DNA of 63,510 nt, the filler included, from Dugesia japonica (Eukaryota), in NCBI GenBank assembly GCA_001938525.1. It is 3 parts of 3 records of this genome, joined end to end, with 100 filler letters (N's around TTAATTAATTAA, not from the genome) between each part and the next. Parts side by side here need not be neighbours in the genome. Positions count along the whole stretch, not along the records: positions 46,925 to 63,510 come from MQRL01643187.1; 2 more parts are not named here. One strand, written 5' to 3'. Every line of letters begins with the position of its first letter. Position 1 is the first letter of the stretch. The notes under the pieces were generated by a model that had not been told where the DNA came from, made no database searches, and saw nothing but the letters and a program-made list of their open reading frames with translations. Both the position numbers and the translations under genes were made by a program. Positions 57,123 to 58,187 of the stretch are shown piece after piece.

Positions 57123-57325
57123 CTTTTTTGTTTGATGATTTAAATGTAAAAATAAATACATGTCGTTACTTTATATTATTTTGTTTTGTTTCCTTCAGGG
57201 TTATACTAAAGGAAAACTTTTCATGTGTTATAATTATATTTTTGCGATCATAAAAGTGGAAATGGTTTAGTGTATTTTTGTAACTTGGATGATAATATCT
57301 TTAGTAAATATTTATTCTTTTGTAG

Positions 57326-57684
57326 TGCATTCCTCTCTGAACCGTCCTTCAGCTCCGACTAAGAAAATAAGAGACACCAGCGAGGACGAAGAAATCACTT
57401 GGGACCTCTATCGCCTGGCAAAGCAACGCTGGGAGTCCGAGATGGTCACCGCCAAAAGTAAGGTTAGGCGGTATAAAAGGAAATGTCTAGCATTTAAGGC
57501 TGAAGCTGAAGCTTCACACAAACAGGAAAGGGTCTGGAAGGCTCAATTGGAGTCTTTCACGGAGATTATCTGGTCCTACCAAGACCGAGAGAATAAACTA
57601 ATCCAGGATATTCACAAATTAAAAACTGCAATATCCCTCGAACCATTGATGGTCGACAAGGGTACCCAGGCTCCGAGAGCTTAA
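57326..57684 (+). CDS. Family A ORF-B, intact terminal exon (119 aa if its AUG is formed by splicing)
   Basis: TTCTTTTGTAG|TGCAT; open to TAA 57684; coiled coil ending DKGTQA; AATAAA 57701. Confidence 0.75.
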
Positions 57685-57804
57685 TATCTCCCATTGCATA
57701 AATAAATGTTTTGATATTAAAATTTATTTTAATTCTATTGCTTTTGCTGAGTTAATCGGCCTATTTGTCGCCGAACAAATAAACTAATGTTATATCTTGT
57801 TTAG

Positions 57805-58187
57805 TGCCGCGAATCACATTCNCAAACAGCTTAAGAAGATGTCACCGAATTATGAGACGACTCATAGTCGAGCGACAACTTAAGCAAAAGACCGACCGAG
57901 CACTTCTGAAGCACCTTAATCAGAGAGATCAATTAATAAAAAGGCTCGACCTGATAGTTAAACGACAGAGCAGTTTGGCCGTGCAAACTAAGGCCCTTGC
58001 ACAAGAAACCCATTTACTATTGCAGCGCAAAATTGATTTTTTAAAACAGTATATTGCAGATCTCTTCCGTCAGTTAGGAAATCTTACATGGGTCCAATAG
58101 TATGAAAATGACGATTCGGCGTCATTTTATTTCTTATCAACCGATCCGGCTCACTGGTTAGATCCGGGGGCATTGGACCTGATGTAA
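57805..58187 (+). pseudogene. Family A ORF-C, copy A5 (one premature TAG at 58098)
   Basis: Branch-like ACTAAT at 57783, TTGTTTAG|TG. The frame continues past the stop to DPAHWLDPGALDLM*. Confidence 0.82.

Follow-up and report, generated by a model that had tools for sequence, protein, structure and literature searches.

The most probable reading of the DNA analysed here is that a mobile repeat, likely a solo LTR, carries an ATG-free leader that is spliced to alternative last exons, and that for two of these exons, ORF-B and ORF-C, the final A of the leader and the initial TG of the exon together form the AUG start codon. The window, that is, the whole stretch of 63,510 nt from Dugesia japonica, is AT-rich eukaryotic DNA with small GT-AG introns and many mobile-element remains. 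Its self-comparison identified five copies (E1–E5) of one repeat, which are approximately 65–75% alike where alignable. The AG|TG starts sit in decayed copies of this ~4.3-kb repeat, which ends TGTTGGGG...CCCCAACA, and all copies in the window are damaged. Their layout consists of approximately 650 nt, a TATA-like box, a leader of approximately 300 nt, a donor, a 1.5-kb segment and then the small ORFs ORF0, ORF-A, ORF-B and ORF-C, most of which have their own acceptor and AATAAA. The copies are as follows.

5240..7700, + strand: E1, partial copy; 5′ end intact, TATA at 5910, leader with one ATG (6143), donor at 6191; right end approximate
9362..13622, + strand: E2, 4261 bp; complete at both ends, which share an inverted match of 9 bp
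10368, 11962, 12284 and 13000, + strand: donor, ORF0, ORF-A and ORF-C (AG|TG) of E2, respectively
19140..21640, + strand: E3, partial copy; ATG-free leader, donor at 20103, ORF0 remnant only; ends approximate
53998..58421, + strand: E4, ~4.4 kb; intact at the 3′ end (CCCCAACA) and degenerate at the 5′ end, with an approximate start
25830..26510, − strand: E5, 3′ part; ORF-C with AG|TG at 26452, intact 3′ end, no leader in view

The 5′ end of E4 matches that of E2 weakly from about 54002. A deletion in E2 has removed the end of ORF-A and the start of ORF-B, E1 has no match to ORF0, ORF-A, ORF-B or ORF-C, and a leader is linked to a surviving ORF-B or ORF-C on E2 (leader end 10367) and E4 (leader end 54940) only. 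The parts of E4, in which an AATAAA follows each of the four ORFs, are given below.

54613..54622, + strand: TATA-like box CCTATAAAAG, which E1 and E2 also have
54644..54940, + strand: leader exon, predicted to be non-coding and taken to begin at TATA+30; no ATG, last base A
54906..54915, + strand: conserved GTTGCA motif, found 23–37 nt before each leader donor
54941..54946, + strand: predicted leader donor, AAA|GCATGT, ranked first among 19 candidates nearby
55970..56200, no strand assigned: ATT/AAT-rich tract within the 1.5-kb leader–ORF0 segment, with counterparts in E1, E2 and E3
56453..56686, + strand: ORF0, own ATG; acceptor decayed (no AG), AATAAA at 56692
56762..57156, + strand: ORF-A exon, acceptor AG at 56760–56761, own ATG at 56771; frameshifted, AATAAA at 57151
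57289..57291, + strand: in-frame ATG in the predicted intron before ORF-B, a rival start
57326..57684, + strand: ORF-B exon, AG|TG, phase 1; split codon followed by 118 codons, AATAAA at 57701
57805..58204, + strand: ORF-C exon, AG|TG, phase 1; stop at 58098–58100, AATAAA at 58199

The ATT/AAT-rich tract between leader and ORF0 also lies at 11250–11430 (E2), at 20873–21404 (E3), where it has hydrophobic open frames of 175 and 165 aa on the two strands, and at 7280–7390 (E1), where its orientation is opposite. It may be a fifth, fast-evolving gene or a mere triplet repeat. Beside the flipped tract of E1, at 7099–7259, is a 77-bp inverted repeat (95% complementary, 7-nt loop) that may mark an inversion.

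It had been noted that ORF-B and every copy of ORF-C lack an ATG at their start and need exactly one base from upstream. Indeed, AG|TG is present at 57325 (ORF-B) and at 57804, 13000 and 26452 (− strand) (ORF-C), and at all four sites the frame needs one upstream base, as the long frame opens at the third base of the exon (phase 1), running for 118, 97, 48 and 105 codons, respectively, against 0–25 codons in the other two frames. The lack of an ATG held for the three ORF-C copies but not strictly for ORF-B, whose start is seen in one copy only (E4) and which has the in-frame ATG at 57289, 12 codons before the acceptor. The companion claim that ORF0 and ORF-A carry their own ATG just past the acceptor was borne out for E2 ORF-A, E2 ORF0 and E4 ORF-A (2, 3 and 9 nt, respectively); the acceptor of E4 ORF0 is decayed.

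Coding constraint in ORF-C begins at the acceptor, at an exon start without ATG in all three copies. Across these copies, in which ORF-C has a pS of about 1 and a pN of 0.14–0.27, codons 2–15 have pS values of 0.97–1.16 and pN values of 0.14–0.26, like codons 16–45, and the pattern is lost in shifted frames; on this comparison of copies, codons 2–15 are under purifying selection. E2 ORF-C is frameshifted after 48 codons, and in E4 the likeness to other copies continues beyond the stop, to approximately 58190. The first in-frame ATG is codon 16 in E2 and E4, this codon is Leu in E5, and none of the three copies has an in-frame ATG between the acceptor and the upstream stop. Taken together with the constraint from codon 2, this indicates a protein start no further downstream than the split codon xTG, which can encode Met, Leu or Val. 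The third base of this codon is G in all three ORF-C copies, despite saturated synonymous sites, and also in ORF-B, whereas in these ORFs only 7 of 26 Val codons and 29 of 77 Leu codons end in G, so that the invariant G favours Met.

The ORF-B and ORF-C proteins are unrelated, their score being reached by 148 of 300 shuffles, with no paralogy found among ORF0, ORF-A, ORF-B and ORF-C, and TG follows only 41 of 664 YYNYAG acceptor-like sites in the window (6%). It is therefore unlikely that the same phase and dinucleotide arose twice by chance (about 0.02 each). The view that AG|TG is a coincidence in dead sequence, whose ORFs were never expressed in this way, is in keeping with the damage to all copies, the want of homologues in protein collections and the zero count of junction reads described below; it is nevertheless highly improbable, given the purifying selection from codon 2, the ATG-free leaders, the periodicity of acceptors and AATAAA and the relatives of ORF0 and ORF-B in oligo-dT RNA runs. 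The split-start arrangement in the cassette is probably real.

Neither ORF-B nor ORF-C had relatives in the protein collections searched, where one match to a repetitive 410-aa protein (E 3e-4) was judged to be coiled-coil noise, and in Pfam the cassette ORFs gave matches below the cut-off only. Single-sequence models, of low pTM for both proteins and the lower for ORF-B, consist of two helices for ORF-B and one long helix for ORF-C. ORF0, ORF-A and ORF-C have Arg/Lys-rich N-terminal stretches, a composition that suggests nucleic-acid-binding accessory proteins.

The upstream half of the putative start codon depends on the leader. As originally proposed, the four candidate donors (6191, 10368, 20103 and 54941) are each preceded by A. 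The four leaders together have one ATG in 1180 nt, compared with 17.3 in dinucleotide shuffles, none of 2000 shuffles being as low, and the E4 leader has none where 4.4 are expected (P 0.008), which argues that the leaders are non-coding. The first ATG returns 3–28 nt past each named donor, and stretches of the same length downstream of the leaders have 4–9 ATGs. ATG-free windows of 290 nt are few (39 of 2221); when the N-free runs of the + strand that lack ATG are ranked, the four leader regions take places 2, 3, 5 and 7. As the leaders are homologous, their four terminal A residues are not independent draws, nor is the depletion four independent tests. With no recourse to a splice model, the depletion marks the leader as 5′ UTR with an end near the named donors.

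By a rough U1-match score, the named donors rank, as predictions, 2 of 22 (tied first), 4 of 19 (E2), 1 of 20 and 1 of 19 (E4) among local candidates; that of E4 is GC, with GT in one related contig of set X1. In the window, A precedes 100 of 349 GTA[AT][GAT]T sites (29%), and a host intron at 42050 also has an A-ended donor. The contribution of the split codon is to make the start specific to the donor, as only an upstream piece ending in A can provide one. The base before a donor is usually G, and the true donor could be another GT preceded by G, with initiation at a near-cognate GUG (G|TG) or, through leakiness, at the ATG that follows. In E2, AAG|GTTAAT at 10160 scores better, in E3 there is an earlier TCG|GT at 20080, and GUG initiation would likewise fix TG, but the G-ended sites are not common to the copies, the ATG-free runs end just past the A-ended donors and the codon-16 ATG of ORF-C being Leu in E5 speaks against leaky initiation; we consider a G-ended donor decidedly unlikely.

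A CC(N)GTTGCA motif lies near each leader end (6165, 10334, 20063 and 54906), and GGTTG-like words occur just before the TATA box. In three copies the motif resembles an acceptor (CAG), but it has no T tract and is more likely a protein-binding site than an acceptor.

Translation of ORF-B and ORF-C had been described as strictly splice-dependent. Splicing does appear to be needed, but this is not peculiar to ORF-B and ORF-C: the donor-to-acceptor stretch contains 24–50 ATGs and 3–8 AATAAA for the four ORFs, all of which should consequently require splicing anyway, and because ORF0 and ORF-A also lie behind 24–33 intronic ATGs and 3–6 AATAAA, the dependence singles out nothing. Trans-splicing offers another source of the start, as flatworm spliced leaders have ATG at their end and Schmidtea uses trans-splicing (PMC12582326, in the part of that report available). 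The phase-0 join of such a leader at these acceptors would, however, miss the conserved frame and open only 4, 9, 25 and 0 codons, and we rejected this explanation, the chance of which we put at close to nil.

A further alternative is that ORF-B and ORF-C are second coding exons, joined in phase 1 to a short ATG exon or to the front of ORF0 or ORF-A, for which two-exon tat/rev is a model. The leaders were inspected for a coding exon of phase 1 that starts at an ATG of its own: the E2, E3 and E4 leaders have no ATG, and the one ATG of the E1 leader is in phase 0. Elsewhere, ATG-led phase-1 donor candidates are present at 55090, 56003, 56961 and 57458 in E4 and at 10501, 10507, 10782 and 12444 in E2, and the env genes of ZAM, Beagle and idefix do use an upstream peptide exon, according to the portion of the source available (10.1101/2023.08.03.551782; PMC12992720). 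By eye, however, none of the eight candidates has a counterpart at the corresponding position of the other copy (among 21 donor-like sites in E4 and 19 in E2), and that at 55090 has lost its G in a related contig (X1). Coding upstream exons would also leave unexplained the fixed third-position G and the same TG in two unrelated ORFs, and we regard them as improbable, although they would account for the start of an ORF-B homologue in a second cassette.

14424..16895, + strand: distant sister cassette (family B) of the same layout; limits approximate

This cassette has an A-ended candidate donor, GAA|GTAAAA, at 14531, acceptors followed by an own ATG at 15429 and 15619, and a different 3′ end (...GGTGACA). 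Its ORF-B homologue, for which 6 of 1000 and 0 of 300 shuffles scored as high in two runs, is in phase 1 but reads AG|GG (at 16297), as had been noted earlier. It is either decayed or a counter-example to the joining of A to TG.

The joining of A to TG is the best reading of the DNA, but the joins are themselves only predicted. Seven of 24 listed runs were aligned, comprising five raw RNA runs (6–26% of each) and two contig sets, with X5, X6, X9 and X1 at 85% on 53900–58500 and X6, X7, X8 and X2 at 80% on 56730–57960. No read or contig in the seven crossed a leader–acceptor junction; the RNA runs each gave 3–68 reads, all partial and in both mate orientations, that fell on ORF0, on the core of ORF-B and on the 3′ end. 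With reads so few, partial and nearly all less than 95% alike, the junction test is weak rather than negative. Oligo-dT libraries contain distant relatives of ORF0 and ORF-B. Joints were recorded from the contig sets only (nine and one), none of them leader-to-acceptor and none GT..AG. One X1 contig crosses the E4 donor unspliced, with GT at that place, and position 54940 (the A before the donor) is not among the 18 of its 24 differences that are listed.

The same comparison bears on whether ORF-B starts at its own ATG, at 57289, via an upstream acceptor (for example 57199), which would leave the split codon to ORF-C only. The frame is open from 57289 into ORF-B, and approximately one read each in X6 and X7 covers about 57319–57368, extending 7 nt into the predicted ORF-B intron, which fits unspliced RNA or chance extension. 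However, position 57291 has another letter in 24.6 of 28.8 of the depth of X2 contigs, so that the ATG is absent there; summed X2 depth rises from 14–108 upstream to 807 in the bin of the ORF-B acceptor, which implies that likeness among relatives begins at the acceptor; and the codons that this start would add resemble T-rich intron. An ORF-B start at 57289 is very unlikely in our estimation.

As to the class of element, we think it rather likely that the ~4.3-kb repeat is the solo LTR of a large Gypsy-type retrotransposon. The ends TGTTGGGG...CCCCAACA are of TG...CA form with a 9-bp inverted match, as for a Ty3/Gypsy solo LTR. E2 has ATAA on either flank, a candidate 4-bp target-site duplication that lies within an AAT repeat, while the other copies lack one end. 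A promoter inside the repeat is suggested by a TATA-like box, found in three of four copies approximately 650 nt from the 5′ end and followed by the ATG-free leader; its activity is inferred. The short inverted ends, the possible duplication of 4 bp and the presumed promoter within the repeat are in line with a solo LTR. None of the copies in the window is flanked by an internal gag/pol region, a PBS or a PPT. An integrase-like DNA transposon (Ginger/GingerRoot) was rejected, the terminal match being 9 bp only, compared with GingerRoot terminal inverted repeats of 100–150 bp in the available part of the description (PMC6839031), and no DDE-transposase family being found among the cassette ORFs scanned. 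A viral contig scan for the locus gave no relatives, none of 373 pattern matches in a metagenome scan was confirmed, and one locus matching the terminal motif had no further likeness and was put down to chance.

Planarian Gypsy-like LTR retrotransposons of the Burro/GYPSM1 type exceed 30 kb, with an internal region of up to 25 kb and accessory ORFs (PMC6431247, as far as the text available extends). A 4.3-kb TG...CA repeat fits a Burro-sized LTR, the two being likened by description only, and by this analogy Burro elements are likely the parent class; section 7 of that account says nothing of an array of ORFs, of splicing or of a split codon within the LTR. In animals under piwi knockdown, LTR elements rise (PMC8532177). 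The literature searched, which took in few subscription papers and no supplements, contained no account of the cassette.

The closest comparison to the split start itself is with the env gene of Drosophila errantiviruses of the springer subclade, which is spliced to the AU dinucleotide of a start codon at mapped junctions (10.1101/2023.08.03.551782; PMC12992720, in the sections available). In both cases an LTR-retroelement ORF without its own start would have its Met codon completed by an upstream splice. In springer, however, as described in those sections, the split is AU|G and concerns one large envelope gene 3′ of pol, whereas here it would be A|UG, at predicted joins, in two unrelated ORFs of approximately 120 codons that share their leader with ATG-bearing ORFs, apparently inside the terminal repeat. 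An errantivirus env proper, which would be an F-type envelope gene 3′ of pol with an AU|G split, was rejected as the identity of these ORFs, which are helical, of approximately 100–120 aa, without an Env family match and split as A|UG. In cellular genes, introns that split the start codon are relatively rare (Nielsen and Wernersson 2006, PMC1626468); they have the same geometry as the cassette (a phase-1 intron in codon 1), yet the part of that survey available does not describe them as recurring within a mobile element in front of several alternative last exons. The sORF1/sORF2 of the MDG1 group (PMC11952523) resemble the cassette in being small Gypsy accessory ORFs with an early poly(A) site and a short RNA, but according to the available portion of the report they are unspliced and lie in the 5′ UTR, and sORF2 is a membrane protein, whereas ORF-B and ORF-C are predicted helices without a family match above cut-off.

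The termini, TATA box, ATG-free leaders, phase-1 AG|TG, conservation of ORF-C from codon 2 and an AATAAA for each ORF are read in the sequence, and the donor position, splice joins, poly(A) site use, translation and LTR identity are the inferred parts of our working model. One promoter and one ATG-free leader would serve alternative last exons through choice of acceptor and poly(A) site, so that each mRNA would be monocistronic, consisting of the leader and one terminal exon and encoding one small, basic, helical accessory protein. ORF0 and ORF-A would supply their own ATG, and ORF-B and ORF-C would borrow the last A of the leader. The latter two would thereby be tied to an A-ended donor, holding the donor at a sub-optimal −1 base, which would be compatible with the need of a retroelement for some unspliced RNA. 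We think that the split codon most likely arose because it was the cheapest start for an exon newly placed after a leader ending in A, and that it became locked in thereafter; it may also have brought a regulatory advantage. Pairing between donor and acceptor regions, of the docking-site/selector kind, was considered and rejected, as the longest matches of 7–8 nt were equalled in 25–49 of 60 shuffles.

The adenovirus major late unit and the accessory genes of complex retroviruses likewise make monocistronic mRNAs from a single promoter and leader by use of alternative acceptors and poly(A) sites, and encode small Arg-rich proteins. The analogy with the cassette is one of layout only, no sequence likeness having been found. 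In a more speculative extension, to which we give a rather low probability, the LTR would be an adenovirus-late-style unit of at least four accessory genes of a giant planarian retroelement, with the split AUG acting as a donor password: ORF-B and ORF-C would be silent in read-through RNA, in RNA spliced from host donors (mostly G-ended) and in RNA trans-spliced to the spliced leader (ATG-ended, out of frame), and the donor would be weak enough to allow for unspliced genomic RNA.

The window has further features apart from the repeat. Decayed gene pieces at 8420–9050, 25120–25330 and 18480–18790 are, by motif, presumably Polinton/Maverick-like; they comprise the C-terminus of a capsid-like protein, two fragments of an adenain-type protease (GGEHW motif) and a polymerase-like fragment. 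Remains of hAT-like transposases, one with a BED zinc finger, lie at 4628–5005 (− strand), 22858–23720, 38829–39197 and 47817–48221. At 27100–28800 and 17790–18200 there are, by eye, a decayed Gypsy-like gag (CCHC) with the start of a protease and an integrase-like end with a purine tract and TG behind it, a second LTR family. The 3′ exons of a host WD40 gene, which we take to be striatin-like, occupy 41000–42270, and one of its intron donors, at 42050 (GAA|GTATGT), is the A-ended one referred to above, in phase 1. Dispersed inverted-repeat families, probably MITE-like, are found at 51731–52013, 59251–59551 and 60088–60307, at 33987–34277 and 37340–37625, and at 40099–40650. Tandem repeats are present at 17351–17534 (27 bp), 31529–31665 (15 bp) and 52058–52676 (31–32 bp), the first of which retains a reading frame rich in Asn and Gly.

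A split start codon is not in itself new; if confirmed, the use of A|UG twice behind one leader would extend the known usage of AU|G in one envelope gene, and an LTR would act as a multi-gene accessory unit. Because ORF-B and ORF-C have no ATG in the DNA, ORF scans and gene finders would miss them, so that the coding capacity of an abundant repeat would be under-counted in an animal that serves as a model of regeneration. Confirmation would also provide a natural test of whether a split start is neutral or enforces the choice of donor, in an animal whose spliced leaders end in ATG.
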